Below, one piece after another: positions 19,253 through 45,241 of a stretch of DNA of 60,630 bases. The notes beneath the pieces are model-generated. The model searched no databases. It was given only the letters and a program-made list of their open reading frames with translations, and was not told the DNA's origin. Source of the DNA: Acidobacteriota bacterium (GTDB taxonomy: Bacteria > Acidobacteriota > UBA6911 > JACQSX01). Both the position numbers and the translations under genes were made by a program. Within the stretch, counting starts at the first letter, position 1, and every line of letters starts with the position of its first letter. The DNA lies in contig DASXQR010000035.1 of NCBI GenBank assembly GCA_036507075.1, forward strand, positions 1 to 60,630, read 5' to 3'.

Positions 19253-19272
19253 ACCGGCACAGGACCGGCACA
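19253..19272 (+). promoter_or_regulatory. Variant arm-type site ACCGGCACAGGACCGGCACA
   Basis: Same 11-bp periodic GGCACA pair and same 121-bp offset from the att core as the other copies. Confidence 0.65.
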
Positions 19273-20699: not shown

Positions 20700-21040
20700 T
20701 GCCGATCCTTGGCACCCATACAGGCGAAGAATTTTGCAAAGCCGTCAGAGTACAGCGCATATGCTTTCATCCTTCTGTCACGCGCTTCTTTGCCTTCCGC
20801 GGATTTGCTCCACTTTCCAAAACCTGACCGATACCAACCAGCCAGGACCGCGTTGCCCGCATTTGGCCTGCGAGACATAATATACAGATATATTCGAGCG
20901 GCGCTCATGACGTTCGCATAAGGGTTACCGGTGAATCGCTCAGCCGTAACATCGCCCCAGGCATCGCCCCATATGAGATCGGAGTTCTTCCGGGTATCAT
21001 ATTGCATCGGGCCAACGTCCCACGAGGGCGCCCTTCTCAA
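20696..21040 (-). pseudogene. 5'-truncated lysozyme/transglycosylase-like C-terminal fragment
   Basis: WDVGPMQ...NPYANVMSAARIYL...LAGWY resembles SLT motifs; no good start; abuts a divergent gene. Confidence 0.45.
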
Positions 21041-21064
21041 TGGCCAGGGCGGGGATTCATCGCG

Positions 21065-23449: not shown

Positions 23450-23574
23450 AACGGGGGGGGTGCAAGCCCACAAAAGACGGCCCGCGGGCCGTCTCCAAAA
23501 ATGTCCAAACTCCAGGGCCGCGACATCTTGCGGCGAACTCTGGCGAAGCATGCTGCCTCTTTACAGCTCCGGTT

Positions 23575-25284
23575 TCATTTAAGCCCGGCCAGCATGTCCT
23601 GCGCCGACTGTGAATCCGGGTTGTAGCGCAGTGCTTCCATCAACTGTTCGCGGGCCTCATGCCTTTTGCCTGAACGCAGATAGGCCACTGCCGCAAAGAT
23701 ACGCCCGGTCTCCAGTCCCGGGTTGCGCGACAGCGCGTCCTTCCATAACTTCAACGCTTCCGGGTATTGCCCTTTTTTTGCCAGCATCCCTCCCAGATTG
23801 ACGGCCGCCACGGTTTGCGAAGGATCCTGCTCCAGGCAACGGCGGTAATGAGCCTCCGCTTCCTTTTCCTGCCCGCGTCTGTCGTAAATAAAACCGAGTT
23901 GCAGTAGAACTTGCGCATCCGGTGCTTCTTCTATGGCCGCCTTTCGCAGCAGATCGAAAGCGCGGTCATATAAGGCGTCCTTCTTTAGCTGAGATGCCGC
24001 TTCCGCGTAAGCCAGGCCCAATGCCCGGGTGTCGACCCGGTTTCCCCAGAAACTTTGCAACTGCAGCTTTCCGACGCTCGGCTCGGTCAGATTCGCGCGC
24101 GGACGCACCGGGATGGAGTGATCTGTGTAAACGGTATGTCCGGCATCGATCACTGGAGTCTTTGGCATGTGACAGGCAGCGCAATCATCCTGGTTAGCGG
24201 CTCGCAGGGCGCTTGATAATCTGCAATCCGTTTCACGATGGCAAGTCAAACATTTGGCGCGAAAATATTCCGCTCGTGACTTTTCTGCGGGCACGAAATG
24301 TGGATCATGGCAGGTCCCGCACCAGAGACGGTCACCGCTTTCCTTTTTACATCGGCTTTGCCACAGCTTCTCAAAGTGGCTGGTTGCTTTCATTTCCGAC
24401 GCGGTGGTCGACCAGACAAAGGATGAAACATGATCCGACAGCAAGTCTCCCGGACGAAAAGTAGAGAGGGATCGTCCCGCTCTAAAGATCCGGGCTTCAC
24501 CCGTGAGATGACACTGAGCGCAGACGCTGTCGCGCCGCCCCGGTTCCAGCCTGGCGGGGTTGACGATGCCAGTGTCGCCACTGGTTTGGCCTGCAGTAAT
24601 GCGGGAGACATGCGGCTGCGCGGGTCCGTGGCAGCGCTCGCAGCTCACGCCGTTTTCAAGAAAAGGAATGTTCGCAAAACCGTTTTGCGTGCCGCGAACC
24701 GGTTGCAACTGGCTGGCGTGACATTCCAGACACTCGGGCCCGACGGCACGAATCAGGTTCATGCGAGTGTGCGATTCGTAACCTGGAGACGCTCCCCACT
24801 GCCGGCGCCGCGAGTAATACGATACGGGTGCCTGGAACAAAAAGCCGCCGCTGGAGTACAGGAAGCTGCGGCCCACGGAACCCGAGCCGACAAAAAAATC
24901 GAAGCGGCGTTCTCCGGCAATCGCAGGTCCCCGGTTGAGAGCGTCTCGCGTGAAGTGGAACCAGTAACTCTCTCCTTTGTTCAATATCCGGTACTGCACC
25001 CCCGACGGAGCATGGAAGAAAGCGGCGGGCGCGAGATCGACCGTGAAGGTGGATCTGTCCACAACGCCGCTGCTGTTTGCCATCGCCGTTGTCGCATAGT
25101 TTTTGTAAATGGACGCGTGACAGCCCGCGCATGCGCGACTGCCTGTATGTTCGGCGGCGCGGTCCTGAGCAGGCGCAAGCAGGATCGCCAGGAAGAGGAG
25201 CAACGCGGACAAAATCATGATGCGCGGGAAGAAAATCACAGAGCCTCGCCGGATGCCAACGGGCGTTGCCGGCACGCGAAGCAC
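23575..25284 (-). CDS. Multiheme cytochrome c (c554-like) with C-terminal TPRs
   Basis: Seven CxxCH motifs (CAGCH, CLECH, CERCH, CAQCH, CGTCH, CLTCH, CAACH) plus TPRs; start may be ATG 25218. Confidence 0.88.
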   Translation of the reverse strand: MLRVPATPVGIRRGSVIFFPRIMILSALLLFLAILLAPAQDRAAEHTGSRACAGCHASIYKNYATTAMANSSGVVDRSTFTVDLAPAAFFHAPSGVQYRILNKGESYWFHFTRDALNRGPAIAGERRFDFFVGSGSVGRSFLYSSGGFLFQAPVSYYSRRRQWGASPGYESHTRMNLIRAVGPECLECHASQLQPVRGTQNGFANIPFLENGVSCERCHGPAQPHVSRITAGQTSGDTGIVNPARLEPGRRDSVCAQCHLTGEARIFRAGRSLSTFRPGDLLSDHVSSFVWSTTASEMKATSHFEKLWQSRCKKESGDRLWCGTCHDPHFVPAEKSRAEYFRAKCLTCHRETDCRLSSALRAANQDDCAACHMPKTPVIDAGHTVYTDHSIPVRPRANLTEPSVGKLQLQSFWGNRVDTRALGLAYAEAASQLKKDALYDRAFDLLRKAAIEEAPDAQVLLQLGFIYDRRGQEKEAEAHYRRCLEQDPSQTVAAVNLGGMLAKKGQYPEALKLWKDALSRNPGLETGRIFAAVAYLRSGKRHEAREQLMEALRYNPDSQSAQDMLAGLK

Positions 25285-25559
25285 AGAGCCACGTCCCGCA
25301 AGGGCGTGCCGGAAACAATCTCAGTCGGCTTGCCTTTCACCAGAATGTGCCGCCGCGAAAAACCGGTCACCTCAACATTTAGCGTCTCCGGCCAGGGGCA
25401 CGTCAATGTCTACGCAAGTGCGAAATACGGCCTGCGGCAGACGGCATACTTTTTTCGGGAACGTGAACGTAATCATTGACGTCAATCGTTGAGGTGCACG
25501 TGACCGTCCCCGGCATTTGTTTGGCGTGCCGGGCTCAATCCTGTGGTGAACAACTCCTG

Positions 25560-28500
25560 TCAGAAATCCATTCTCAACCCGAGTTGCCCGGTTCGACTTC
25601 CGCTCACACTGGTGATTTGCCCGAATCTCGGGTCAAGCACATTGGTCACGATGCCGCCGAAGAAATGACGGTTGAACACGTTAAGGAACTCGGCGCGAAA
25701 TTCAACCTTCATTCCTTCCTTAACCCTGAAGTTCTTATGCAGCCCGACGTCTTCTGCGATGCTCCAGGGATTCCGAATATTCGACGTAAAACCGGCGTTC
25801 CCCAGCGTAAAGGGTTTGTGGTCGGTAAAGACTCCGGGTCTCACATACAAATGTGGAGTGTAACCGGCGCGCGACACCGCCGAGGCGTCAAAGCTCTTGC
25901 GGTCAAACCCGGCCAGAAGCGATTGGCCGCCGGGATTGTTCAAGTCTGGACGGTTTGCCCGGCCGTTCCAACCCGGAATGGCGCTGCCGGTAAACCTGAG
26001 CGGAGTTCCGCTGGCATAATTCCCCAGGTAACTGAGTGTCCATCCGCCCAGCGCAAAGTCGGCCGCGCTATGCATTCCGCTGAAGAACTTTCGGTTCGCG
26101 CCAAAAGGAAGTTCGTACGTCACCCCGATTTTATAGACATGCGTCTGGTCGCTGTCCGAAAGGCTTTTTTCCAGTTTCAAATTGTAGTAGTCCAGGGGCC
26201 GGTTTGGATTGTCGTTTCTCAGGCCGCTCTCCATGTTGTGGAGCGTCTTTGAAAAATTGTAATTTGCCAGCAAGCTCAGGCCGCCGCTGTAGCGGCGATT
26301 CACCGCCAGTTGCAGCGAATGGTAATTGGAATGGCCCAAAGGAGACTGGAAGGTCGTTAAACCGATGCCGTTTCTGGCCAGATGAGGGAACGGGACCAGG
26401 GCCTGCCACAATCGCCCGCCCGCAAAGGCGGGATAAGGGAGGCCGGGGAGCCCGAACTTTTGGGCGTCCGCATCGGTTTGCAGCACGCTGTCCAGGCTGG
26501 CGCCGAATTTCAAGTGTTTCGGATCGAGCTGGTTTTTATTCGCCAGGTCGCCGACCCACAATCCTGAAGACTTCGCCCCGACATAACCGATATCCACAAT
26601 CAGATCTCTCATCAGCTCCCGCTGGATGTTGAAATTCCACTGTTGCGTATAAGGCGAGCGCCCGGCGCTCGGATCCCAGTGTGTCACACCGCCGAACTGC
26701 CAGGCTGCAGGCGTAAATGCGGCAGGCACAAAATTCCCCGGATATCCGTTGTCCCAGTTGAACAGGGAAGTGAAATTAAACGGGTTGCTCATGTTGTTGG
26801 TGCCCGCAAAGCCGCGCTGAAACGGCGCGCCCGAAAATCCGTTGAACACTGAAGCGTTGTAGAAAATTCCGTATGCAGCGCGAATTGAGGTTTTCCCGTC
26901 GGGCGAAAACGCAAATCCGAGTCTCGGCCCGAAGTCGTTTTTGTCGCTGTCAACGAACCGCCTCTTGCCGCTTCTGCCCGGACCTTTACCGGCAAATACC
27001 ACCGCGCCCTTCATACCAGTCAAAGGGTCGGTCAGATTCAGGTCGAAGTTTGATGTGCGATCCGTAACTTCCACCATCGGCGGCTGGAATTCGTAGCGCA
27101 GCCCGAGGTTCAAAGTTAATTTTGAGTTGACCTTGAAATCATCCTGCACGTAGCCGGCGTAATAGTAAGTGCGGCCGCCGGAGACCAGCGGCACCCCCAC
27201 GCTGGCGTTGTTCACCTCTCCCAGCAAAAAGGAGGCGAAGGCGTGTCCGACAAAATTCACGCCCGGAATGCCGGTCTGCTGTGACGTGAAGTTGAAGGTG
27301 CCCGAGAGATTCCCCTGAGGCCGGTTATTCTGCTGGTTTCCGCGCAGGTCCAGGCCGAGCTTCAGATTATGCCTGCCGCGCGTCCAACTGATCGAGTCGG
27401 CCGCGCCCCAGGAATTGTAGGTCTGGAAATCGTCCTGCGGATCGCCGATGTTGTCAAAGCTGATCCCCGCCGGGCCCGCGCCCCAGTTGATGCGCGGGCA
27501 GGGGCCGTTCTGCTTCACTCCCTTGATTCCCAGTGTCGCCGCACAGCCTTCGTCCACATGCGCGGAGCGATTTGGATTTGGCATGCGGTTCCACGACACG
27601 ATGAAATGATTCAGCAGCGTCGGCGACAGGATGTAATCGTGCGCGGTCCTGAACAGCCAGGAATTGACCACTTGACGGCGGGCGGTAGACAGCGGTCCCC
27701 CAATCGGATCGGTTGGATCCCACAACCCGCCCTGATCGAGCAAGAGTCGCGGGCGCGTATTGCGCGCCAGGCTGCCGTTTAATTTTTGTTTTTCTGAAAT
27801 GTCGTGATCGATTTTAAAGGACCACTGGTTTTGATCGAATTCAGGTGTATTGGCCAGAGGAAAAAGGCTGTTGGCGGTGAGCGAATTGTTTACCGGGGCA
27901 TAGTGTTTTTTGGCGATCGCGCCGATGTTTCTCGAAACCTGGCTGATCCGGCCGGCGGGGATGATGTTGTTTGGAAAAGGATCTGCCACGAAGCTCGATC
28001 CGACCTGCTTCAGTGTGAGTGGATCGTAAATCGCCCCGCGCAGGATTGGCCTTCCCAGCGCGTCGGTTCCTACCACGGTTGTGGTCAGCAGCCGGCTCAG
28101 GTTTCCTTCATACATTTCCAATTGCGGTACGGTGCGATTGGGAGTACCAAAGGCCAGCTGGCGCTCTTGATATTTCTCGGCCGATATAAAGAAGAATGTC
28201 TTGTCCCTTCCATTGTAAATCTTGGGCAGGACTACCGGGCCGCCGAAACTCCCGCCGTAATTGAAGCGCCTCTCTCTGGCGCGCGGCCGGCCGGCGGCGT
28301 TATTGGCGAACGAGTTTGCGTTGAGCGCCTCGTTGCGAAGCTGCCCAAAAAGGCTGCCATGAAGTTTGTTCTGGCCGGAGCGCATCACAAAGTTGAACAC
28401 GCCGCCTCCGGTTCGCCCGTATTCAGAGGATAAGCCGCTGGTCTGGATCTTGAATTCTTCCAGCGCTTCCATCGAGACGCTGCTTTCTCCAAAATGTCCC

Positions 28501-29084
28501 GCCAGATAAGTGGTGACGGAAGCTCCATCCAGCAGCACCTCCTTGGAAAAGGCCGGGCTGCCATTGATGCGCGACGTCCAGGTGTTCCCTTCAACGCCTG
28601 GAGTCAATTTGTATGCGAAAGCCTCGGGCGATCGGCCGCCCGCAAAAGAGAGCGGGAGCGAGAAGATATCGGAACGGTTGACGGTGGTACCGACCTCGGG
28701 TGTCTCCGTTTGCAGCAGAGGCGCCTGCGCGGTCACGCTGACAACGTCGGCAGGCGAGCCGATATCGAGCCGCACGTCAATTCCCATGACTTGTGACACG
28801 CTCAGCTGAAGATTGTCGCGCACCAGAACCTTGAATCCCGGAGATTCATACTTGATCAGGTACTCGCCTATAGGCAGGTTGGGGACGTTGTACTGCCCCT
28901 GGGCGTTGGTTTCAGTAGTGTACGTACCATTGGTCGCTTTGTTAACGACGGTGATGGTGACGTTGGGCATCGGGGAACCCGAAGGATCTGCAACCGAGCC
29001 GGAGATAGTTCCTCGATCCAATTGGGCCATGGCCGAACCAGCGATCAGAAACAGCAGAGGCAGTACCATCCATTTTGACTTCAT
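25560..29084 (-). CDS. TonB-dependent receptor (carboxypeptidase-like N-domain)
   Basis: Start MKSKWMVLPLL after an AGGAG RBS; RNEALNANSF and C-terminal QLGLRMDF. Confidence 0.92.
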   Translation of the reverse strand: MKSKWMVLPLLFLIAGSAMAQLDRGTISGSVADPSGSPMPNVTITVVNKATNGTYTTETNAQGQYNVPNLPIGEYLIKYESPGFKVLVRDNLQLSVSQVMGIDVRLDIGSPADVVSVTAQAPLLQTETPEVGTTVNRSDIFSLPLSFAGGRSPEAFAYKLTPGVEGNTWTSRINGSPAFSKEVLLDGASVTTYLAGHFGESSVSMEALEEFKIQTSGLSSEYGRTGGGVFNFVMRSGQNKLHGSLFGQLRNEALNANSFANNAAGRPRARERRFNYGGSFGGPVVLPKIYNGRDKTFFFISAEKYQERQLAFGTPNRTVPQLEMYEGNLSRLLTTTVVGTDALGRPILRGAIYDPLTLKQVGSSFVADPFPNNIIPAGRISQVSRNIGAIAKKHYAPVNNSLTANSLFPLANTPEFDQNQWSFKIDHDISEKQKLNGSLARNTRPRLLLDQGGLWDPTDPIGGPLSTARRQVVNSWLFRTAHDYILSPTLLNHFIVSWNRMPNPNRSAHVDEGCAATLGIKGVKQNGPCPRINWGAGPAGISFDNIGDPQDDFQTYNSWGAADSISWTRGRHNLKLGLDLRGNQQNNRPQGNLSGTFNFTSQQTGIPGVNFVGHAFASFLLGEVNNASVGVPLVSGGRTYYYAGYVQDDFKVNSKLTLNLGLRYEFQPPMVEVTDRTSNFDLNLTDPLTGMKGAVVFAGKGPGRSGKRRFVDSDKNDFGPRLGFAFSPDGKTSIRAAYGIFYNASVFNGFSGAPFQRGFAGTNNMSNPFNFTSLFNWDNGYPGNFVPAAFTPAAWQFGGVTHWDPSAGRSPYTQQWNFNIQRELMRDLIVDIGYVGAKSSGLWVGDLANKNQLDPKHLKFGASLDSVLQTDADAQKFGLPGLPYPAFAGGRLWQALVPFPHLARNGIGLTTFQSPLGHSNYHSLQLAVNRRYSGGLSLLANYNFSKTLHNMESGLRNDNPNRPLDYYNLKLEKSLSDSDQTHVYKIGVTYELPFGANRKFFSGMHSAADFALGGWTLSYLGNYASGTPLRFTGSAIPGWNGRANRPDLNNPGGQSLLAGFDRKSFDASAVSRAGYTPHLYVRPGVFTDHKPFTLGNAGFTSNIRNPWSIAEDVGLHKNFRVKEGMKVEFRAEFLNVFNRHFFGGIVTNVLDPRFGQITSVSGSRTGQLGLRMDF

Positions 29085-29658
29085 AACCCACACTCCTGAC
29101 GTGAAATTTGCGGACCGGAAACTGCTGCATTCTAGCCCAATCCAAACTTCTTCGCTACAGAGAGGGAAACGGTGCGAGGGAGACTGGCTGGAAAATGGCA
29201 TCTCCGGCGCGAACCCAGGCGCGGCAATCGTGTCGGCTGACCCAGACGTCTCCGATTCCCCAATGCAGATGGGTGCTGGAGATGCTGGATACATCTCACC
29301 GAAGAACTGATCTCCTGGTGGATTGAGACGTGCGGCTCTTTGAGTTATTTGCCAGCGACTCGAATTTAGTGAAGAGGATTTTGAAATTTTTGCAAAGATA
29401 AATGGCCTGTTTAACATCGATTAGTGCTGATCCGATCTGCGATTGAGGAAATTGGCTTGCTCAGTAACGTGAGCGCGTTTGCGTAATCGTCAGGAACAGA
29501 GATCTCGACGGCCAGCGCTGGACCGTTGTGAAAACGCAATGCGGGATCATGCTGCTTCGTCTGCGGGTTGATCCAAAAACGGTGTAAACCGGCATTCATC
29601 CGACGTGCGAAAGCCGGGATTCGCTACTCAACTCACCCGCGGCGGACGAGGTACCGAG

Positions 29659-29709
29659 CAGGTTGTCCGGTGCCTCTCACCAACAGGTTGTCCGGTGCCT
29701 CTCACCAAC
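29659..29709. repeat. 25-bp tandem duplication CAGGTTGTCCGGTGCCTCTCACCAA x2
   Basis: Directly visible. Confidence 0.9.
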
Positions 29710-29887
29710 GGAGGACGTAAACAGCTGATCGGATTAGATTCTGGCTCGCAACCAGTCCTCAGGTCCAAAAAAGTCCCCACTTTGCTGCCGGGATTATCCG
29801 TAAGGCGACAAAACCAACAGGAGGTTGATATTTTGGAAGGCTGCCCGCAAAATTGAACCATTAAGCTGGAGAACCCTGCGGAAGCTT

Positions 29888-30430
29888 ATGACAATGGTTG
29901 CGTTTCTGTTGCTCACGCTATTTGTGTCCACGGAGCGTCAAGAGCCTCGCTTCACAGATTATCCAGTACGCGATGTTTTTCGCGGCAAGCCAACTCCACC
30001 GCGCTTAGTTAAGCCTTGGGCGAGAATGTATCGAACCTGCATTCGGGAGGGTGTTTCAAAAGGATATGGGGTTGAGCACGGCAAAAGGGAAGGACCTGGC
30101 CCAAACTTTGCCGGGCACTATTTCGTAATCACGTGGGGATGTGGTGCGGGATGTGCCCGTATGGCAATCGTCGACGCACTGACAGGCACGGTTTATCCGC
30201 CTCCATTATCAATCGACAAACGGGACCCGCTTGCGTTGCCGCATTTTGGATTTGTCGGCCATGCTTCCCCCGAGTTCGAATTGAATAGCCGCCTTTTTGT
30301 AATGGAGACTTGTACGTGGCCGGACCCACCGACCCGCAATGAAATCCTCCCTTGTGCCACATCCTATTTCATTATCGAACCGTCAGGTTTCAAACTGGTG
30401 AAACGCGTCGACTGGAAATTTCGCAGGTGA
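29888..30430 (+). CDS. Secreted hypothetical protein
   Basis: Signal-like N-terminus; PRFTDYPV...PNFAGHYFVITWGCGAGC conserved-looking motif. Confidence 0.65.
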   Translation: MTMVAFLLLTLFVSTERQEPRFTDYPVRDVFRGKPTPPRLVKPWARMYRTCIREGVSKGYGVEHGKREGPGPNFAGHYFVITWGCGAGCARMAIVDALTGTVYPPPLSIDKRDPLALPHFGFVGHASPEFELNSRLFVMETCTWPDPPTRNEILPCATSYFIIEPSGFKLVKRVDWKFRR

Positions 30431-30516
30431 TCAGCGAACGAAATTGGTTAGCCTGAGTCCGAGAGGCGGGTAATCCTCTGAACTGCCAAGGTATTGCGCA
30501 CCACCGTGGAAGGAAG

Positions 30517-30561
30517 TGGCGGGGCCGACGAGACTCGAACTCGCGACCTCCTGCGTGACAG
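30517..30561 (-). repeat. att site: 3' fragment of tRNA-Asp (copy 1; distal end of the 20.8-kb element)
   Basis: Exact 45-bp match to 51273-51317. Confidence 0.95.
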
Positions 30562-30680: not shown

Positions 30681-30698
30681 GGGCACAAAACGGGCACA
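30681..30698 (+). promoter_or_regulatory. Putative integrase arm-type site GGGCACAAAACGGGCACA
   Basis: Same 18-mer at both ends of the element (also 51205-51222). Confidence 0.8.
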
Positions 30699-30735: not shown

Positions 30736-31971
30736 ATGACGATAAATCCATTTCAACTTCCGCCCATGAACACCCTACAGGATCAGGGCAATATTGGAAT
30801 CCCTGCACAACCAGCCATGCCGGGCCAAGCTGGAAACTCCGGCATGAATCGCTTTCTAGCGCTTATGCAGAACCCGGCCATCCTGAGATTGTTAGGCCAG
30901 GTGGGATCGAATGCGGCAGGCCCGTATGCTGGTCAGGCATTCGCTCAGCAGTTCGCGCAGCAGCAGCAATTGATGAAGGATGAGGAAGACAGAAGGCTCA
31001 GGCGGCAGCTTGCTCTTTCAGGGGAGAAGAGGGCGCAGGATGCGGAAGTCCGAGCCGGCCAGTCGGATCGTCAGCGTCAGGTGGAGCATCTTTACAAGCT
31101 CGCGGTGGAATCCGACGTGGAAGACGCAACGGATCTGGGCCAGTCCTTCGGTATGGATAGGCCGACAATCGCACAGACGAACGCGGCGCTAAAGAAGTTT
31201 CAGAGGGCCAAAAAATCCAAAGAGGTTTTCGTCAATCGCGAGACAGGCGAGGTAGGTCTGCAACCGGGATTCATGCTGAACGAGAACGCCGGGAAGTACA
31301 TCACTCTCCATGATGTTGAGAAAGCGACAAGCCTCAGTGAGAAAATACAGGATCGCAAGTCCCGCGAGCAAATCGCCGCGGTGAGTAGAGCCACCATTTT
31401 ACTTGGGAGAAATAAGGCCGTGCCTGCGAGCTTGGCTAAGGCGGCTGGGCTTGGCGAGGAAGCGATAGATCCGGAAAGAACTCGAGAGATCACGCTCAGG
31501 ATTCCTAAAAAGCTTCAGCCGGTTTTTGCCGGCCACACAGAGCTTTCAGTCCCAATCCAGCAGGCCGATAGCTTTCTGAAGGCTTTTATTGAAAAGCCGG
31601 AACAGGCGCGGGAAATCTACTCATTCATGCAACGGCCGGACGGAAGCATAGTCGTCGGCAATCAGGTCAGCGGCGCGATAAGCTAGAGTGGATTCGGGCC
31701 AGTTGCAAAACCGCCGGCGCCTAAAGAGCAGAATTTGGGCGACGATATGCGGTTGCGGTCCACGGCGGAAAACACGCTGAAGGCAATGATCGCGGATTGG
31801 GCGGACATCTCAGCACAGGAGAAGGCTCAGCAAATCGAGAATTACATCGAGACATTCCGGAAGACTGGGAAGCCCGCGCAGCCTGTTGCAGTTTAGGTTC
31901 CCGGCCGCATCTATGGCACAAATACGGTTTTCCGGATTCCGGCTCCCAATGACCCTGCAGGAATAAGGTAA
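30736..31971 (+). pseudogene. Putative DNA-ejection/internal virion protein 1, interrupted by two in-frame TAGs (31684, 31894)
   Basis: AGGAG RBS + ATG 30736; Q/A/G-rich and coiled-coil N-terminus; frame continues through both TAGs to ...NDPAGIR-TAA, 7 bp before the next ATG. Confidence 0.55.
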
Positions 31972-31978
31972 CCGAACA

Positions 31979-34900
31979 ATGCCAGACGCCAAACCAGCAC
32001 TCACAAAGTTCAGAGCCAAATTCGCAGGCTCATATGACGACATGAGCGACCCTCAGTTGCTATCCGCTCTGAAGAAAAAGTATCCGGGCACTTACGATGA
32101 TCTGACTCTCGGCAACGGATCACAGGTAACCGCCACAGCACCGGCAGCGCCGGAGCCTGAGAGTAGTAGCGGTCCGATGGCTCCTGTCTTTGGTCCGATG
32201 GCTGAGCAATTCTCAAGTGGCCTGGACACTGTCATTGAAGGTCTGAGCGCCAAGAAAGGCGAGTCAGCTCTCAAGTCCGGCCTGATGGCTCCAATCAGAG
32301 CCGGGCAGGCTGCTTTAGGAATGGGCCAGATGGCTCTTACAGGTGCAGCCCCAGCACTGCGAGCCGTGGAAAACTTCGGTATGACGGTTGCCGAGCCATT
32401 CTTGTCTGGGTCCGTACAGATGCCCAACGTCGCGGCGATTTCCAGGAACGTCAGCAGGCTCGGGAATCTATCAGGCCCCGACCGTCCAACAACAGGCAGT
32501 CCCATCGCCGATACGATTGTGGAAGTTCTAGTAGGCTTCCTGCCATTTGAAAGAGCGCTCAAACTCGCCGGCCTTGGCTCAAAAGGAAAGATCCTGAAAG
32601 CAGTGCGGGACGAGTCACCGAAATCTGTCTTGGCGGTACGCGATGCATTGAAGGTAGTTCCCGAAGAAAAGATTCAACAGGCGGCTTCGGAATTAAAGCT
32701 GCTTCCCGCGGGACCGGAATCCACACTCGCAGATAACGCGGGTGTAATGACAGGGCAAATTCTTGGACAGCCCGGAGGACTGGGACCGCGCAAGATTGCC
32801 GACGTGACGCCGATCGAGGTGAACCGTCTGCGCCCCGGCGCTCCTGTTGCCGGAAGACAGCCTACAGGGTTGCGGCCGCAGGATACCGCGATGCTTTCCG
32901 AGCCGATGCCGTTTCAGGACGTCGCCAGAGTGGCGGCACGCAGAGAACAGCAGGAGCGCCAGTTTGGTTCTGTCGTGCCGCAGCGAGTCTTCGGCGCCCA
33001 ACCTGACCCATTTCCCGTCCTGCCGCGGGGCATAACTGGAAAGGTCCAGGAGGTTGAAAGAACACTGGACGCAGCGACACCGGAATCCATCAAACAGGAT
33101 TTGCTGGAAATCAGCGGCTTTCGAACCTATCAGAAACTCGACAATCAATTTGCAGAAGAGGCGGCAAAGCGCCAGAGCCGACCGGCAATTGATACGGCCA
33201 CAGTCGAAGCCAAAGCCGCACAGCATTCAAAACACGATTCTGCTCTGCCCGCGCAAGAGGCGGCATTACAAGAGCAGAAGATGCCGATAGAAATCAGCAA
33301 GCCGCAATACGGCATGTTAAATCGCCTCGCCAAACAGGCATTGCCTGACTTTGACGGCCAGGACATGTCCTACATATCTTCGCGCCTGTTCGGCGAGGGC
33401 AGGACGGCGCCGCGAACCATCCACGAGTTCAAGACGGCCGTTCAGTTCTTCCGGGATCTTGGACAGCAAACCGGCACACTCGATGCTCGTGCTTTAGCGC
33501 TCGGTGGTGACCTTGGGCCTGTAGATCCGGGCCGCATGGCGACAGTTGGCAATCCGAGTTTCCTGCGTCGACTCTATCAGGGAATTGACTCGCGCCTGGT
33601 CAGCAGCGGCCACGTCTACCTTGCCAAGCAGGGAAAGCCGGGCAGACAACTTGCGCTGACAATTGACCAAGTAGACAGTAAATCGGGAATCCGCGCCGGC
33701 AAGGCCGTCAGCGAGCTGGAACAGGTTACAAAGAGATTGACTCCACCACAACTAAGGCAGGTTCACCGTGCCCTGGATTTTGGACACGAGGCTGCAGACC
33801 CGGCCGCAGCTCGAGCCGTCTCGGTGCTGAGGCAGAATTTAGATTCAATGTGGGAAGAGTTTGTTTCCCTTGGCGGCGAAGTCCGGCACACGGACGGACG
33901 CAAGCTCCCGGCCACACTTACAGACGGCAAAGCCTATTTCCCGCACTTCATCAAGCGGTCGTACCTGGAATCAAAGGACGGCTACAACACGGCTCTCACT
34001 CACCTTGTGCAAACCGGACAGGCTGAAAATCTTGGCGAAGCAGATCGCATCTTAAGGAGCTTCATTTCACGGCATACCGTGCGCAGGTTTGGAAACATGG
34101 AAAAGGCCCGCGAGATCAACCTGCCAGAGCAGTTTTATGAGACGGACCCAGTGAAGGCGCTCAAGCTTTACTTTTCCCGCGGGTATCACAGGCTCGAAGA
34201 GATGCGGCACTTCGGGCGCAATGATGAAGTGGCAATCGGCCTTGTCGAGCAGATCCGCGCAGAGGGCCGGGACGCGGATTCAGCGCAGCGGATCTTTGAC
34301 TCGGTAAGGGGCAAAAGCAACCACTCCGAGTTTGCCGAAAATCTTTCGGGCGCACTGCGAAGCTGGAACGTGCTTCGCTCGATGGCTCTTTCGCCCATCA
34401 TCAACAGCACGCAAAGTTTTCAATACCGCTTTTCGGACTAACATCCGCTCGACTGCCGGGGCAATTGCCAGAATGACCAGTCGAGCAGGCCGGGAGGAGA
34501 GTAGGGACTTTGCGCTAAGGGCTTCGGCGACATTGGACGAGGCCATTAACGGAGTTCTCAGGGAGATGGGCGGCTCGGGGAATATCGCTCAGACCTACCT
34601 GAAGATGATCGGCTTTGGGGCAACGGAGCGATTCAACCGGACTGTCTCGGCTGTAGCCGGCAAGAACTACGCCGAGCAACTGGCGGGCACTCTGAGAAAG
34701 AATCCAGCGGACAAAAGCGCATCCTTTCAACTCTCCCGGTTGGGGCTTAATCCAGCGACGATAATGGAACGTGGCCTGTCGGAAGACGATCTGTTGAAAG
34801 CTGCTCAGACGGTGACCCGCGAGACGCAGTTCTCACCTCGACCTCAAAACCTGCCTCTCTTTCTAAACAGCCCATCGGGCAAGGTTCTCTTTCAGTTCAA

Positions 34901-35369
34901 AACCTTTGTCTACAACCAGACCAAGCTGATCAAAAACGAAATCCTCCAGAACGTGAAGTCCGATCCGGCCGCTGCATCAAGAAAGATCCTGATGCTGGTA
35001 GCCGCCGCTCCGGTTGTCGGAGAGTTGGGCCTGGATGCAAAGATGCTGGTGCGAAACTTCGTGGCTGGCGTTCTCAACAACGATGTTCACGTGGACCGCC
35101 CATCAGCCCTTGTAGACCGGATCATTGAGGACTACGCAGCGGTTGGCTCTTTCGGGATCTTTGGCGACATATACCAGTCCGGCAAGTACGGCGAGCGGGG
35201 CATCACGAACCTGATAGCAGGGCCTACCGCCTCAAATCTTATGGAAGCGGCAGTTGCCACAGGAACCGGCAGCACAAAACGCCTGGAAACCTTGGCAAAG
35301 CGAAACACTCCGGTCCTTGGACCCCTGCTGAGCGGCCCAAAGAAGAAACAGCCGCCGGCCCTGTACTGA
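31979..35369 (+). pseudogene. Putative large DNA-ejection/internal virion protein 2 (~1130 aa), split by a frameshift near 34417-34420
   Basis: N-terminal FRAKFAGSYDDMSDPQLLSALKKKYP and C-terminal ETQF...LPLFLNSPSGKVLFQFKTF resemble podovirus internal proteins. ORFs 31979-34441 and 34332-35369 join if one T of AGTTTTCAAT is removed. Confidence 0.6.
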
Positions 35370-35521
35370 GATGGCAGCGTATTGCGTTATTTGACAATAT
35401 GGCATTGTTGAAAAAGCCAAGCATGGGGGTGACAAGCTTCGATGCCAGAAAATCGTTCCTGGGGGCATTTGGAGCGAAATGCGGGGCATTGTAGGCACAG
35501 GATGAGGAAAGGATACTGCTT

Positions 35522-35782
35522 ATGAGAGAGGAGCGAGACAATTCAGGGATTCTCTTTGCCAACAAAAAGCGGACCACCGACAAACACCCGCACTACAAGG
35601 GTACCATCCGGATCAATGGAGCCGATTACTGGCTGTCGGCCTGGGTCAAAAAGGACAAGGACGGGAAGGCGTTCATTACCCTGTCAGTCACCAGTAAGGA
35701 AGACTACAAACCGGCCTCCAAGTCCAGCGCCGATGACCAGCCGGAAAAGGTTGATTGGGGCACCGTCTATGGACAGCGATAA
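35522..35782 (+). CDS. Small phage protein, DUF736-like/SSB-like
   Basis: NSGILFANKKRTTDKHPHYKGTIRINGADYWLSAW...FITLSV with an acidic tail. Confidence 0.65.
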   Translation: MREERDNSGILFANKKRTTDKHPHYKGTIRINGADYWLSAWVKKDKDGKAFITLSVTSKEDYKPASKSSADDQPEKVDWGTVYGQR

Positions 35783-35848
35783 TCCCCAGAATTCGCGCAA
35801 CGTACCTAAGACTGTGTTGATGCCATTTACAAGTCGAAAGAGTACAAT

Positions 35849-36499
35849 TTGCGATCTGTGGGTGCCTCTTGGCTTCTCGACCACCTCCAAAAGGAATGGA
35901 CTGTGATAAGCGCTGCCCCAGGTGCTTTCACTTTGGCTTGCCTTCTATCTGCAATTTTAATTTGGCTTTTCCTGAGACACGTTTATGGCGAAAGGCTGAG
36001 AAACGCTCAAGAACTGAATGCGATTTACAGAGAAAAACTTGGGATGACATCGAAAGATGAAGCCGACATTACCGATTACCTGAAGCAACGGTTTGAGGAC
36101 ATTGAGTCAAGACTTCCGCGCAATTTGACAGAGGATCAGACACACATTCTTATCGCTGAGCTGTCCAAGTTCAAATACGAAGGACGCTTGGTACTTATTC
36201 ATCCAAGCTATCTTGCATTCGACGCGGCGCATTACTGTGACCAGTTTGCAACTGTTTTCGATTTAGCGACGTGGAACATAATCCGCGGAAGAAATGGGGA
36301 CATTCGGGAAAAGGAATTCGACGATCATCCCATCTCTGTAATCGGTAATGATGTCGTTTACAAGGGAACCGTGAGTGCAATTTCTAAAGCATTGCACGCT
36401 GCAAACCTAGACCATTTCCTAAATGCATCTGTGAGCACGACACCGACGCTCATTATTGGAAAGCCGAAAGCTCATTTAGCGTCCAAACGTGATCAGTAA
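35849..36499 (+). CDS. Membrane-anchored hypothetical protein (AT-rich cargo)
   Basis: 216-aa ORF with one N-terminal TM helix and a coiled coil; start uncertain. Confidence 0.6.
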   Translation: MRSVGASWLLDHLQKEWTVISAAPGAFTLACLLSAILIWLFLRHVYGERLRNAQELNAIYREKLGMTSKDEADITDYLKQRFEDIESRLPRNLTEDQTHILIAELSKFKYEGRLVLIHPSYLAFDAAHYCDQFATVFDLATWNIIRGRNGDIREKEFDDHPISVIGNDVVYKGTVSAISKALHAANLDHFLNASVSTTPTLIIGKPKAHLASKRDQ

Positions 36500-36528
36500 G
36501 CTTCCAACCAGCCGAGCCGGCAGAAACA

Positions 36529-36984
36529 ATGGATGACGGTATGACCAGAAAAACCACCACACTGAAGCAGAAAGCCTTTATCGCCGAATATTTAGCTAAC
36601 GGCGGCAATGGTACCCAGGCGGCTCTGAAAGTCTACGGGACGACCGATCCCGGCACTGCTGCCGTAATAGCTAATGAAAACTTAAGAAAACCTAACCTGA
36701 AAAACGAGATTCGGAGACTCATGGGAAAGGTGGAATTACGGGAGGAAGACGCCATGCTGGTGGTCAAGGATGCACTGACAGCCGACAAAACAGACATTGC
36801 GGACCATCCTGTAAGACTCAGGGGCGCCGATATGGTGTTCAGGCTGAAAGGCACTTACCCAAAAGAGCAGCCTCCACCGCCAGCACAAGGCAGTAAGCAT
36901 CTTCATTTACATCTGCAATCGGCTGAGCAGGTAGCCGCGGCGAGAAGGTTGCTGATGGCTGATGTTCCCCCGGCTGACTCATGA
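36529..36984 (+). CDS. terS: Terminase small subunit
   Basis: TLKQKAFIAEYLANGGNGTQAALKVY...AAVIANENLRKPNL, a typical Terminase_2 HTH. Confidence 0.85.
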   Translation: MDDGMTRKTTTLKQKAFIAEYLANGGNGTQAALKVYGTTDPGTAAVIANENLRKPNLKNEIRRLMGKVELREEDAMLVVKDALTADKTDIADHPVRLRGADMVFRLKGTYPKEQPPPPAQGSKHLHLHLQSAEQVAAARRLLMADVPPADS

Positions 36985-37109
36985 ATTCATGAAACCGACG
37001 GCGGTAACCCAGAACACGCTTTTTGCCCGACGACTGGCGATATGCTATTTTCGGCTCATCGCTGTGCCAAAACGTTATATCCTCTCGTGGAAAAAGTCGG
37101 CGAGTGATT

Positions 37110-37472
37110 ATGGAGAAAAAGGCGAAGGTTTCTGGCGTTGATACTAAGGCGGCCCCAGCGAGTGGAAAAGAGGCGGCATCAGCAGGGCGTGTCGTTCGAG
37201 TCAAATGGGGGGCTTCAAGTTCCATTCCGACCATATACGCCAACCATTTGGTGATTACCCATAGTGGGCCACAATTCTATTTGGTATTCGGAGAGCTTGA
37301 GCCACATTCGGAACTCATTGGACAACTGGTTGATGAATTTAAACCTCCTGACCATGTGGAAATCGTCCCAGTAGCTAAAATCGCTGTAACCCCGAAAGCC
37401 ATGCGGCAGTTCGCAAAAATTATCCAAGAGAATGTGACTAAGTTCAGCGAACAAGCTACTAGTGACGAGTAG
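37110..37472 (+). CDS. DUF3467-like protein
   Basis: IPTIYANHLVITHSGPQFYLVFGE...VAKIAVTPKAMRQFAKIIQENV. Confidence 0.6.
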   Translation: MEKKAKVSGVDTKAAPASGKEAASAGRVVRVKWGASSSIPTIYANHLVITHSGPQFYLVFGELEPHSELIGQLVDEFKPPDHVEIVPVAKIAVTPKAMRQFAKIIQENVTKFSEQATSDE

Positions 37473-37510
37473 AACGGACCAAAAATTCACAGTATAATTT
37501 TAGACAGCCT

Positions 37511-37894
37511 ATGTCATATTCGATCGTCTTTAACCCTGCCGATAGTTCCAGTACTGTCCACTCCGCAGAGTCATCTGGTGGATATCGGTCATCCCAAGCG
37601 TCGACAGATGTTCGCGTCTTAACGGATCTTGAAAGCCTAGAATTTAAGTTGCGCACACCTATATGGGTTGAAATCCAGCTTGACGAAAATCATGGGCGGT
37701 TTTTGGCCACTGGGGCAGGAATTCTAGGGCCTTTGGACGGACTCTACGGGGCTGGGGAAACTGCCCAACAGGCAGTTAGCGACTTTGAAAGCATGCTGGT
37801 TGATCTTTTTATCGAATTAAATGAAAGCCAAAACTTGTCTGCGACACTCCAAATACAACTCGCCCACCTGAATCACCTCGTACAGTCACGGTAG
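37511..37894 (+). CDS. HicB-like antitoxin
   Basis: LRTPIWVEI...LYGAGETAQQAVSDFESMLVDLF partial RNase H-like HicB pattern. Confidence 0.6.
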   Translation: MSYSIVFNPADSSSTVHSAESSGGYRSSQASTDVRVLTDLESLEFKLRTPIWVEIQLDENHGRFLATGAGILGPLDGLYGAGETAQQAVSDFESMLVDLFIELNESQNLSATLQIQLAHLNHLVQSR

Positions 37895-37897
37895 ACT

Positions 37898-38179
37898 ATG
37901 CCGCCGTCGATTAGAGAGATGAAACGGTGTCTTTCTAATAAATTTCAGTTTTCTCAAGTGGCTGGAAGTAGGCACGATGCATTATCGCTTGAGATAAACG
38001 GTCTAAAAGTTGCTACCACTCGCTTCTCTAGATCCTACGCTGATCTGGATGATGGAATCCTGAGCAGGGTCGCTCAGCAATTGTGGGTGAATCTTGGGAG
38101 ACTGAAAAAGATGTACGACTGCAGTTTTTCTTACGAAGAATACCTGCAGCACCTCCGCAACATAGGGCGTCTTCAGTAA
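37898..38179 (+). CDS. HicA-like toxin
   Basis: IREMKRCLSNKFQF..GSRH...TRFSR...ILSRVAQQL dsRBD-like HicA pattern with conserved His. Confidence 0.6.
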   Translation: MPPSIREMKRCLSNKFQFSQVAGSRHDALSLEINGLKVATTRFSRSYADLDDGILSRVAQQLWVNLGRLKKMYDCSFSYEEYLQHLRNIGRLQ

Positions 38180-38585: not shown

Positions 38586-39188
38586 TCACTCCCCACCGCT
38601 AAGGATACGTGCCACAGTACCGTTACCTACGCCAAGCTCCCGGCTGATTTTCCTCTTACTGTAACCCCTGGCAGAAAGCTTGCGGATTTTCCTTTCCACG
38701 TCCCTCGAGATCCTCGGGCGCCCCAAGCGCTTACCACTCGCCACGGCGCGGCGCAGACCGGACTTGACCCTCTCCTGGATGATATTGCGTTCCAGTTCGG
38801 CGATGGCGCTGATAATGGTGAACATCGCCTTGCCCATCGGGGAGCCGGTATCCAAGGATTCCTGGAAACTGACAAAATCAATCCCCACGTGATGGAATTG
38901 CTCAAGAGCCGTCACAAGGTGTTTGGTGCTTCGGGCAAAGCGATCAAAGCGCCAGACCAGCACAACATCAAAGCGGCGCTTGGAAGAATCGGCCATTAGT
39001 TCATTCAACGCCGGACGGGAATCCTTCGAGCCTGAGATTCCGTTGTCCACGTACTCTTTGAAGATGTCCCATCCGCGATCGCCAGCATAGCGGCGCAGAT
39101 CGAGCAATTGATTCTCGCAGGTCTGTCCGCCGTTTGTGGTGCTCACGCGGGCATAGATTGCAACGCGGGATTTTTCCTTTTTAGTCAT
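38586..39188 (-). CDS. Serine resolvase/invertase with C-terminal HTH
   Basis: AIYARVST, GSKDSRPAL, VLVWRFDRFARS, AELERNIIQERVKSGL and GRP. Confidence 0.92.
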   Translation of the reverse strand: MTKKEKSRVAIYARVSTTNGGQTCENQLLDLRRYAGDRGWDIFKEYVDNGISGSKDSRPALNELMADSSKRRFDVVLVWRFDRFARSTKHLVTALEQFHHVGIDFVSFQESLDTGSPMGKAMFTIISAIAELERNIIQERVKSGLRRAVASGKRLGRPRISRDVERKIRKLSARGYSKRKISRELGVGNGTVARILSGGE

Positions 39189-39450
39189 TGCAGGTCTCTC
39201 CCTCCTGGTCATCGGATTCGGACTCGTCTGCTGGATTGGCTTTCACAAGGCGCAACCCGTCAAAGTCGCCAGAGCCTTTTCTTTCCTCCTGGAATTCTTC
39301 GTACAGATCCCAGATTTGACGATTGATCATTTCGAGAATCGTGTGTACTGCTTCCACTTCCTTCGTGTCTTGCACTTCCGTCAGGATCATCAGCGAGTAG
39401 ACACCGCGAACAGCCAGCAACAAACGATCAGATTGCGATTTGGTAATCAT
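39181..39450 (-). CDS. Small helical hypothetical protein
   Basis: ATG 39450 with GGAGAG RBS; overlaps the resolvase start. Confidence 0.5.
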   Translation of the reverse strand: MITKSQSDRLLLAVRGVYSLMILTEVQDTKEVEAVHTILEMINRQIWDLYEEFQEERKGSGDFDGLRLVKANPADESESDDQEGETCND

Positions 39451-40085: not shown

Positions 40086-40298
40086 TTATTTGGTCACCTT
40101 TTTGGCGGCCCGTTTCCTTCGCCTTTGACAACTGGGACAGCTCAGGGATTGCACCGCCAGGGCGATGTAGTGCTGTATTTTGAGCCTGTCGCACTCCCAG
40201 GTTGAGACTGTCAGCCTCTTGACTCCTAACGCCTCTGCCAGGGCCTTCTGTGTCATGTCAAGCCGCTCCCGGATCTTTTTCAGTTCTCTCCCTTTCAA
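40086..40298 (-). CDS. XRE-family HTH regulator
   Basis: LKKIRERLDMTQKALAEALGVKRLTVSTWE; AAAGGAG RBS before TTG. Confidence 0.8.
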   Translation of the reverse strand: MKGRELKKIRERLDMTQKALAEALGVKRLTVSTWECDRLKIQHYIALAVQSLSCPSCQRRRKRAAKKVTK

Positions 40299-40376
40299 TT
40301 TGCTCCTTTCTCCTTGCCAGAATTGCAAGGTGGAACCGGCCGAAGGTTTCCCCGGCCGGAACCATCCGGCAACCAC

Positions 40377-41237
40377 TTAAGTTTCTTCCTCGAACTTGCG
40401 ATTAAGGATGAAATCCGCGGCCTTCTGAGCCTGCGCTCCTGCGATCACAACCAGCTTGCTATCCACTCGAAGCCTTGAGAGCCAGCCATTGATGTAGCTG
40501 GCGCTGTTGTCCAGCACAGCGTTTTCAATGCCCGTATGCCCGCAAAGGAAAGAGGCCGTCATTTCGGCTACCAGTTCCTCGCGCGAGTAGTTTGTGCTTC
40601 CAAAAGGGCAAAGGTCCGTAAGGGTCTGCCTGTTTAACCGCGATTCATGCCCGGTTGAATGCGCCAGTTCATGGAAGGCCGTCGCATAAAAACCTTCGTC
40701 TGATTTGAACAGGACACGCTCAGGCATGTTGACGGTATCGGTAGATGGCCGGTAGTATGCAAGCGCTTCCAAGCTGCTCATACGCGGCGGATTTGGCATT
40801 CCTGAGATAACCTGCTCGCATTCCTGAATGGGGGTAAATTCCCGCGTCACTGTCTCAGTCGCTGGCGCTTCGATTCCCTCGCATTGTGCGACATTGAAAA
40901 CCGTGTAATAGCGGCAGAGCGGGATAGTTTTTTCTTCCTGGGTGTCCTTGTCTTCCGCTTTCAGCCACTTCCAGAAGACTACCGGCGAACCCTTTTCACC
41001 CTTGCGAACGTTCCCGCCCAAGTCTTGAGCTTGTTTGTAAGTCAGCCAGTAGGGTGATGCGTATTGCTGGCAACCAAGCAGGAAGACGTTAATCCCGCGA
41101 TACTCTTTCTTGCTGATCAGGTTTTTAGGCATGGAGCCCGCCGCATTCCATGGACGCTGCCAGGGGATTGTTCCCTGTTCCAGTTTTTCGATAATCCGTT
41201 TCGTGATGACGTCATAGACTGTGTTATTCTGAGACAT
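40377..41237 (-). CDS. ardC: ArdC anti-restriction protein (DUF1738 ssDNA-binding + zincin-like domain)
   Basis: IPWQRPW, YRGIN, WLTYKQA..GGNVRKGEKG, YTVFN..Q, HELAHSTGH and YSREELVAE. Confidence 0.92.
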   Translation of the reverse strand: MSQNNTVYDVITKRIIEKLEQGTIPWQRPWNAAGSMPKNLISKKEYRGINVFLLGCQQYASPYWLTYKQAQDLGGNVRKGEKGSPVVFWKWLKAEDKDTQEEKTIPLCRYYTVFNVAQCEGIEAPATETVTREFTPIQECEQVISGMPNPPRMSSLEALAYYRPSTDTVNMPERVLFKSDEGFYATAFHELAHSTGHESRLNRQTLTDLCPFGSTNYSREELVAEMTASFLCGHTGIENAVLDNSASYINGWLSRLRVDSKLVVIAGAQAQKAADFILNRKFEEET

Positions 41238-43229: not shown

Positions 43230-44360
43230 TCACTGGTGCCCTACTTGCTCTATTGCCTTTTGCAAGATTCCAGTTTCCAGCGCTTGGCGCGTTCCGCATG
43301 TGATTTCCTTCGGCAATTCTGAATCTCCTCCTGACTTTGTGACGTAGATTAGAATGAGAGGAGATTTGCGCCTATTTACTTCAGCCTCGATGACACTCTT
43401 AAGATATGGTTCGAGGTACCATCGGCAGCCGACGATTACCAAAATTTTAGCCAGGCGAATAGCGTTCAGAAACCTAGCAAACAGGCTGACGTAGGGTTCA
43501 AAGCGGGGAAGCTTGCCGCCTCTAGCAAAAAGCATGGTAGGTGGATTTAAACCTCTCAGTATGCCGTAACTCTGCAGACTAGGATTAATTCCCCGAAACC
43601 CCATTGAGGATTCGTGTGGGGGAAACTCCTCGATTTGGAATTCGGGCGGTGTGTGCAGCCAACTGACTGATCCATGTAGTTTATACAGCATTAGCCGATA
43701 ATCGTGGTTGTCGAATTCGTCTGGCTTCCACCGTCCATGTGAGAAGCCAGTTGTTAATGGGATTCCACCCTTGTAGCAAGCGAGTTCCACTGCCACGTCA
43801 TAATTCAAGGTGAAGACCTGGACGCGCCCTTCGAAGGAAGCGAGTCGCGCGAGGTAAGAAACGTCGTTATGGTTGAGATCGATTTCAAGCCACTGACGCA
43901 GTTCCGACTGGACCCGATTATAAAGCAGATCATATGTGTGGCCTTCTGAGATGGCCGCGTGACTGAAAAAGGCGCGATCCGAGTCCGTAAAAGGTCGTGA
44001 CCATTCCTTCGGTATGTGCTCTAGACCACCATGCTTTGAAGGGAAGCCAGAGAACTCAGCTAATTCTGGGAACCAAGTCTGTACAAATGGGTAAAGTCCT
44101 GATTTGAATCTGAAACGCAAATCGTCGAGCGCAGCGATCACATCCTCGAAATTGTCACCGCTTATGAAAGGGTTATCTTTCTCGACGCTCTTGAGTTTTT
44201 TTCGAATGAGATTAAATAAACGTTGTTCTGGACTCCCGCTTGTGAATGAGCGTTCCAAACGCCTGAAGAAATCCGCGGTAGCCGGGAGACCTGCGTCAAT
44301 AGATGCCCCGGCACCAAGCAAGAAAATCACCCCCGATCTGGTCGGTTCTGGCTGTAACAT
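43230..44360 (-). CDS. SIR2-like (SIR2_2) NAD-binding protein
   Basis: FLLGAGAS, FTLNYD, LYKLHGS and LVIVGC motifs. Confidence 0.88.
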   Translation of the reverse strand: MLQPEPTRSGVIFLLGAGASIDAGLPATADFFRRLERSFTSGSPEQRLFNLIRKKLKSVEKDNPFISGDNFEDVIAALDDLRFRFKSGLYPFVQTWFPELAEFSGFPSKHGGLEHIPKEWSRPFTDSDRAFFSHAAISEGHTYDLLYNRVQSELRQWLEIDLNHNDVSYLARLASFEGRVQVFTLNYDVAVELACYKGGIPLTTGFSHGRWKPDEFDNHDYRLMLYKLHGSVSWLHTPPEFQIEEFPPHESSMGFRGINPSLQSYGILRGLNPPTMLFARGGKLPRFEPYVSLFARFLNAIRLAKILVIVGCRWYLEPYLKSVIEAEVNRRKSPLILIYVTKSGGDSELPKEITCGTRQALETGILQKAIEQVGHQ

Positions 44361-44935: not shown

Positions 44936-45241
44936 TCACCTCACCTCTTCCGTCGCCGGCCCCAATATCGCCCGGGCTGCTTCAATCAATTTACGCTGTC
45001 CTTCTTCAACGGTCTCCGCTTGTCCCGTAATTCGTGACGGCGGGTCGTCGAGCGCCTGGACCGTCAGTGATACGAATCCATTTTCCTGCTGAACTATTAA
45101 ACGCCAGCACTTGCCGCCAGCTATGTAATCGGCCCGGTATGATTCGCCGGTTTTTAAAACACTCAGGCTCAAGGGGTGGCCGGATTTCCGCATGTGTGCG
45201 ATGGTTGTTGTTGAAGGTGGCCGGATACCCAAACTCGACAA
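44936..45241 (-). CDS. Hypothetical protein
   Basis: Co-oriented small ORF filling the gap; start uncertain. Confidence 0.45.
   Translation of the reverse strand: MSSLGIRPPSTTTIAHMRKSGHPLSLSVLKTGESYRADYIAGGKCWRLIVQQENGFVSLTVQALDDPPSRITGQAETVEEGQRKLIEAARAILGPATEEVR

Follow-up and report, generated by a model that had tools for sequence, protein, structure and literature searches.

The contig DASXQR010000035.1 of an Acidobacteriota bacterium (assembly GCA_036507075.1), analysed over its 60,630 nucleotides (the window), carries a 20,756-bp island flanked by an exact 46-bp attachment (att) repeat at a tRNA-Asp gene. The left att core (30516-30561) is an exact copy of the 3' part of the tRNA and the right core (51272-51317, minus strand) falls within the intact tRNA-Asp(GTC) gene (51273-51349). 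An 18-bp motif at 30681-30698 (plus strand), which recurs at 51205 inside the right end and at 17273 in an older arm further to the left, is likely to be an arm site of the integrase. The left end of the island, all on the plus strand, consists of gene 1 (30739-31971), gene 2 (31979-35369) and genes for an 86-aa phage single-stranded DNA-binding (SSB)-like protein (35522-35782), a 216-aa low-GC protein (35849-36499) and a terminase small subunit (TerS; 36529-36984). The right end, likewise all on the plus strand, comprises an excisionase/AlpA-like HTH_17 protein that is a candidate regulator (47257-47544), a 576-aa P-loop protein that is a likely replication helicase (48147-49877), an excisionase (49874-50128) and a tyrosine integrase (50125-51225), the last a single open frame with its catalytic motifs. 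A preliminary description of this DNA had proposed a capsid-less satellite that hijacks podovirus heads and supplies an ejectosome of its own. That is still the best reading of the island, here in the form of a decayed satellite, similar to the phage-inducible chromosomal islands (PICIs), that would have equipped the heads of a helper podovirus with a gp15/gp20-type and gp16-type pair of its own; we put its probability at about one half, given that both genes are now pseudogenes, that no sibling island was found and that the relatives of gene 2 lie in phage virion modules.

Profile matches, fold and gene order all place gene 2 in the T7-gp16-type internal virion and ejection protein family. 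The two motifs singled out in the preliminary description, FRAKF..YDDMSD..L..AL..K.YP and QF...LP...LFQFKTF, are indeed present, near 32009 and near 34827-34908, as is the NDPAGIR ending of gene 1 (31948-31968). The C-terminal piece of gene 2 retrieves 1,803 representative homologues, the longest of those listed having 4,448 aa; homologues match phrog_684 and phrog_342, the latter (internal virion protein with endolysin domain) at profile positions 1023-1217 with E 3.5e-11. In their own loci the homologues are the last of a run of small, medium and large genes beside tail and lysis genes (197/441/1249 aa in locus L003, 273/452/995 in L044 and 278/424/990 in L045), where the label 'gp14/gp7' for the small upstream genes is a reading from size and position. 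The fold was compared with a structure model of the 665-aa core of the L003 homologue rather than of the window protein (pLDDT 84, pTM 0.85). In BFVD this model gave 100 matches at E<=0.001, headed by large polyvalent and structural proteins (best match E 1.8e-11, TM 0.67) and including internal core or virion proteins of several podoviruses at E about 2e-6. In the PDB a chain of the PhiM1 ejectosome came first both by Foldseek (E 0.011, with the T7 core protein 7eyb fifth) and by VIA-align (Z 7.8, root-mean-square deviation 8.2, 248 aligned; next Z 4.9), and this chain would, from its length and the available text of PMC11440229, be the gp16-like TEP. The structural comparison called for at the outset, made here with the homologue core, agrees with an ejection protein in BFVD, while in the PDB the ejectosome ranks first at a weak score. 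Sequence searches of the PDB with the gene 2 family profile, a Pfam scan of 33 family members and a tblastn search of annotated phages with the C-terminal piece gave no match, and single-protein scans of the loci found nothing. The highest 19-residue hydropathy of the C-terminal piece, a measure of possible membrane-spanning helices, is 1.48. The same C-terminal core occurs with differing N-terminal additions in proteins of 1,600-2,200 aa (P0021, P0029, P0043, P0055, P0078, P0131 and P0159), these additions being a transglycosylase, a DarB-like region and a region matching phrog_21.

Gene 1 would occupy the middle, gp15/gp20-type slot of such a run, a placement supported strongly by position and size and weakly by sequence, and is a candidate tunnel protein. 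Its 410 codons compare with a median of 420 aa for 70 genes that stand upstream of gene 2 homologues. The Atlas clusters closest to it are phage hypotheticals (0.91), with a sub-threshold lead to PF16928, a phage DNA ejection protein (0.89), and in pairwise comparison only it scored 9.7 bits against the upstream neighbour at locus L086, above all of 1,000 shuffles (maximum 6.6). A homologue search among proteins of 173-552 aa returned gene 1 alone, and a resemblance seen by eye between the part beyond its first stop and the C-termini of the L044 and L045 neighbours did not beat shuffles. The original claim of two tandem ejection genes is supported for gene 2 and only weakly for gene 1. Between the att site and gene 1 there is no space for a gp14/gp7-type gene.

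The length of about 1,130 codons first given for gene 2 stands, but neither gene is intact. In gene 1 the NDPAGIR ending is reached only through in-frame TAG codons at 31684 and 31894, and gene 2 is split by a frame break near 34,415 into open reading frames (ORFs) of 820 and 345 aa, some 1,128 codons in all. Both frames of gene 2 are matched by 126 of 150 homologues, and the intact 1,234-aa homologue P0002 aligns to the two pieces in order (26% and 35%). Assembly error was ruled out as the cause of the frameshift, at which contigs of two runs, one of them from a separate study, are identical; among the pieces listed, the TAG sites are covered by one run alone, which may itself be the source. 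Recoding of TAG was rejected as unlikely: TAG serves as the stop codon of the integrase gene and of two cargo genes, and a search of the genome found no tRNA whose anticodon is CTA or TTA. The copy of genes 1 and 2 seen here is a relic, and the module has lost its function in this host. In a quick tree of 136 rows the C-terminal piece of gene 2 has a terminal branch of 0.28 against a median of 0.31, which suggests that decay was recent and that the sequence was under constraint until then.

The remainder of the island agrees well with a capsid-less element. The preliminary description had listed terS, an att-bounded element and the lack of capsid, portal, terminase large subunit (TerL) and tail genes, and all of these were confirmed: TerS matches PF03592 above cut-off (E 1.3e-13) and is the genome's single match to that family, and the island ORFs matched neither a capsid, portal, TerL or lysis family nor a tail family of PHROGs in scans that covered 27 ORFs in Pfam and PHROGs, 22 of these also in NCBIfam, and another 15 ORFs, small or alternative ones, in PHROGs. 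The sole match with 'tail' in its name is a sub-cut-off one to NF032893 ('tail-700', PLxRFG), on gene 2 itself, and no fragment left as a stump of a head, tail or lysis gene was found among the ORFs scanned. The gene once described as DUF736/SSB-like is SSB-like by its match to phrog_7364 (E 1.8e-13) and has no Pfam match to DUF736. No helper TerL was found in the host assembly, which is 96% complete; the genome's single TerL-profile match is PhoH. The P-loop protein (PF27228, with a Walker A motif) has 3,095 homologues among those listed, the majority of the 119 examined being longer, and the word helicase is a reading from its size, position and motifs rather than from a database match. Neither the HTH_17 gene at 47257 nor the HTH_3 gene at 40086 has an AlpA-named match in Pfam, PHROGs or NCBIfam, and scans for promoters and terminators gave results at chance level. 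No RNA data set was listed as containing the sequence.

Set against the PICI model of SatelliteFinder, as given in the part of that paper available (PMC10085698), the island shares an integrase with att sites and TerS, together with a candidate helix-turn-helix (HTH) regulator and a likely replication gene, as well as the lack of tail, holin, portal and head-tail genes. It departs from the model in having no primase region and another gene order, in encoding virion proteins and in having no capsid-morphogenesis gene detectable among its ORFs in Pfam, PHROGs or NCBIfam, a gene also lacking from the staphylococcal PICIs (SaPIs) and from EcCIMP1, a PICI of Escherichia coli (PMC10085698, PMC11773190; texts seen in part). 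PICIs typically carry no other phage structural genes, and ejection proteins go unmentioned in the available parts of the SatelliteFinder paper (PMC10085698) and of a survey of marine satellites (PMC9618062), whereas gene 2 here is a homologue of internal virion proteins. The island would work like a PICI, but is PICI-like rather than a member of the group because no capsid-morphogenesis gene was detected and a structural gene is present.

From the order of its genes we infer how such a satellite would have operated. Induction of a helper would lead to excision, and circularisation would join the plus-strand run of HTH, helicase, excisionase and integrase genes to that of gene 1, gene 2, ssb and terS, about 270 bp apart across attP. 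The new junction would then switch on the late module, an order that follows from the coordinates and would require read-through transcription. The satellite TerS would steer the helper TerL to the 20.8-kb genome, and the two satellite proteins would be packed in helper heads beside the helper's own gp14/gp7-type protein. On infection the two would build the section of the DNA conduit that spans the periplasm and the inner membrane. The satellite would most likely gain access to cells that shut out the helper's pair through their envelope or superinfection exclusion, helper lysogens in particular. Satellites described so far influence the induction of the helper, the size of its capsid and the packaging of DNA; control of DNA entry would, if the reading is right, be a further lever and a hijacking strategy in its own right, and would change the understanding of satellite host range and of superinfection exclusion.

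The podovirus ejectosome (T7 gp14-16, P22 gp7/20/16, PhiM1 TEP/OEP/EP3; PMC8954989, PMC11440229, both in part) provides the natural comparison. Gene 2 shares with it family, predicted fold and the last-of-three position of its homologues, and gene 1 matches the middle slot by size and position; the island differs in having no gp14/gp7-type gene, no N-terminal transglycosylase match and no surrounding virion module. In P22, according to the portion of PMC10461980 available, whole foreign ejection sets assemble and work, and the gp16 and gp20 of Sf6 work as a pair with P22 gp7, while either alone gives dead virions. Mutations that escape SieA, an inner-membrane exclusion protein, map to gp16 and gp20 (PMC10461980). 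The minimal swappable pair of P22, gp20 and gp16, matches the two genes found here, and a satellite that retains only this variable pair and takes the conserved third protein from its helper would therefore fit. The gains named in the preliminary description, namely a changed host range, evasion of superinfection exclusion and poisoning of helper virions, would be feasible judging from P22 genetics.

The combination is less unprecedented than the preliminary description had supposed. EcCIMP1, a 19,963-bp PICI in a tRNA-Thr gene of E. coli MP1, excises and transfers only with phage Kapi1, and its describers, in the text available, note that genes 017-019 are similar to DNA transfer proteins and propose a role in packaging (PMC11773190). 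From RefSeq and PHROG annotation it carries a complete P22-type ejection cassette (phrog_651, 598, 917 and 770), that is, gp14-, gp7-, gp20- and gp16-family genes. Among 5,426 E. coli genomes this cassette has a partial match in 667 and is at least 80% covered in 72, and six loci that were opened proved to be four capsid-less PICIs, one complete P22-like prophage and one deleted prophage. None of the four PICIs has an annotated TerS. The three besides that of MP1 (L139, L221 and L222) match only the first 1.3 kb of the EcCIMP1 cassette, so that their gp20 and gp16 alleles differ, and one of them has a truncated gp16; they keep the first two genes of the cassette, suggesting that the gp20/gp16 pair has been repeatedly exchanged. 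EcCIMP1 resembles the present island in its size of about 20 kb, its tRNA gene, integrase, HTH regulators, replication gene and podovirus ejection genes, and in having no capsid, but differs in that its four-gene P22-family cassette directly follows the primase and is not accompanied by TerS. The present island has instead two genes of the T7-gp16-type family with ssb and TerS, lying across the att site from the integrase, and broken. A wider proposition, which we advance tentatively and hold somewhat less probable than its converse, is that capsid-less satellites of distant lineages acquired, each on its own account, the gp20/gp15 and gp16 pair of their helper podoviruses, that they travel in helper heads and tails while an own and frequently swapped conduit takes them across the cell envelope and would open lysogens and excluding hosts to them, and that the island described here is an excision-activated, TerS-bearing example of the T7-gp16 type, unrelated to that of E. 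coli. The value of the present copy, broken and unique as it is, would be that of an independent pointer, unrelated in sequence, to such a strategy, and the idea is directly testable in EcCIMP1, whose full ejection cassette has been viewed by its describers as no more than a set of candidate packaging genes. In the full-text literature searched, to which subscription journals and supplements mostly do not belong, no paper on satellites that use ejection proteins of their own was found.

Several observations weigh against a satellite with its own ejection pair. Neither sibling island nor second copy was found, so that the search proposed earlier for other att-bounded, capsid-less elements with the two genes and terS came back empty in the genomes scanned, and among 18 gene 2 homologue loci scanned none has the layout seen here, whereas 14 have virion or lysis neighbours. 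The gene 2 family profile matched none of 400 other genomes of the phylum, and a profile of the clade matched one of 136 other genomes of the class, there within a virion module that also contains a major capsid gene. No ejection family was found by profile in the 658 ORFs of 40 regions around related integrases, helicases or TerS. An older copy of the left arm at 17104 (91-92% identity over 210 bp) is followed by different genes, the gene order of the island is not the canonical one of PICIs, and the primase-like region with which fully displayed homologues of the P-loop protein open has no match in the window. Profiles of three and five members did not separate gene 1 from shuffles, and the fold matches of the L003 core model in the PDB are weak on their own for a helical protein. 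Selection on genes 1 and 2 cannot be shown because both are broken, and foreign ejection sets gave escape from SieA in one case of four, at about 10%, the other three remaining blocked (PMC10461980, in part). It had been said at the outset that close relatives in the form of complete prophages would speak for a deleted prophage; relatives of gene 2 do lie in phage virion modules, while no close relatives of the island itself were found, and a deleted prophage is accordingly possible.

Such a history would start from a temperate podovirus in which the genes for portal, capsid, tail, TerL and lysis were deleted, two ejection genes and terS survived near the att end and cargo was acquired, the remaining virion genes now being in decay. 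Every annotatable gene 2 homologue locus looks like phage, and major capsid genes lie downstream of the homologue in six of 57. The sister of gene 2 in the tree, P0019, is found on contigs of phage size (40.7 and 49.6 kb). The virion module of the same class (L219/L220, G036:C17:412000-433877) shares with gene 2 only the N-terminal region of its large ejection-like gene, showing domain swapping. The three lesions in the two genes point the same way, as does the remnant of a P22-like prophage at argW in E. coli O157:H7, which has an integrase beside tail-needle, gp14, gp7 and gp20 genes and no capsid; its tail-needle gene is truncated and marks the deletion, and it has no annotated replication gene or TerS, whereas the island shows no such stump. 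Against this history stand the at least two clean deletions that it needs, without any fragment of head, tail or lysis genes left behind, and the backbone of excisionase, integrase, island-type helicase and ArdC, which resembles that of capsid-less tRNA islands. The integrase family occurs in 37 of 137 genomes of the class (its own included), and among 14 flanks of related integrases scanned (PHROGs, E<=1e-9, up to 20 kb each) none has a capsid, portal or tail match and three have TerL-labelled matches. Coding runs in the same direction continue over the 2.4 kb upstream of the neighbour gene in 42 of the 43 distinct homologue loci with enough flank, unlike here, where the att site stands 177 bp upstream of gene 1. 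TerS was detected in none of 150 downstream ORFs at the phage loci (150 of 172 listed ORFs, 57 of 61 loci), a count to be read with the caution that TerS is easily missed and that one locus has TerL there. The nearby att site and the downstream terS argue against a plain phage fragment, and we regard a deleted prophage as unlikely. Overall the backbone looks like that of a capsid-less island and the block at its left end looks phage-derived.

A second alternative is an ordinary tRNA island that caught a phage fragment beside its att arm by chance, the fragment never having been of use and now decaying. The different genes behind the older arm copy would mark the slot as variable, related integrases head very diverse islands, and no sibling was found; yet the block is a functionally linked pair with ssb and terS and shares the strand of the helicase, excisionase and integrase genes, its GC content at third codon positions (0.61-0.65) is like that of the integrase (0.67) and unlike that of the cargo (0.46-0.51), and the short terminal branch suggests constraint until recently. 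Chance capture appears to us decidedly unlikely. The lowest weight goes to a satellite of interference, in which mismatched subunits are packed so that helper virions become non-infectious and the host population is protected. P22 virions in which gp16 alone is foreign still assemble, but as dead particles (PMC10461980, in part), and the island carries defence-type cargo (SIR2). Poisoning, however, would need no more than one foreign gene and the island keeps a matched pair, the E. coli PICIs keep all four ejection genes, and EcCIMP1 leaves the lytic growth of its helper unrestricted (PMC11773190, in part). We consider this improbable and retain the PICI-like satellite with its own ejection pair.

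The prophage-like L219/L220 module, which encodes a major capsid protein, an adaptor and three ejection-like proteins, is a candidate for the type of helper or donor. P0025 (MDA2937184.1), which counts with P0019 as the most informative relative, comes from an Acidobacteria metagenome-assembled genome, where its contig measures 22.7 kb. One region with a related integrase (L194:6915-8330) has a TerL gene and a DNA polymerase, with no capsid match within 20 kb. Searches with single parts of the island gave little: the sibling arm sequence had one 23-bp match in the 136 other class genomes, the arm motif one unrelated match in viral contigs, and TerS one short match, in host-gene surroundings, in 400 genomes of the phylum.

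Two more tRNA-Asp att cores to the left of the island make the locus a tandem array (17099-19135 and 19081-30561), whose 2-kb unit at 17099-19135 carries a pair near 17.4-18.1 kb that looks by eye like VapBC, a reading from size, position and motifs rather than from a database match. A second excisionase-integrase pair of the same genome (G000:C88:25-1583), at a tRNA-Arg gene and cut by the contig start, has an integrase 45% identical to that of the island, and a copy of its att site appears on contig C169.

The middle of the island is cargo and contains a PEGA protein, SIR2, DUF5677, ArdC, HTH, resolvase and DUF3467 genes. Next to terS lies a low-GC trio on the plus strand (37023-38179) of DUF3467, 127-aa and 93-aa proteins, the latter two without family match, which has by eye the look of a toxin-antitoxin cassette. 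On the minus strand follow a serine resolvase/invertase (38586-39212; PF00239, E 7.8e-47), the HTH regulator with the ArdC anti-restriction protein (40086-41237) and a SIR2-domain protein (43230-44360; PADLOC Aga_SIR2, E 9.7e-32), which is candidate defence cargo and stands alone, with no Argonaute partner among the island ORFs scanned. A small unannotated ORF at 44936-45241 (minus strand) belongs to a family that recurs in island-like regions of the same genome (G000:C207 and C167). The 216-aa protein encoded between ssb and terS has one N-terminal hydrophobic segment and no family match, and this single-membrane-segment protein may have a role in exclusion; in P22 the exclusion gene sieA is located just after gene 16. 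Outside the island, intergenic host DNA of the window contains a tandem repeat with a period of 8 bp and two long inverted repeats (1892-2067, 10039-10312 and 51852-52075).

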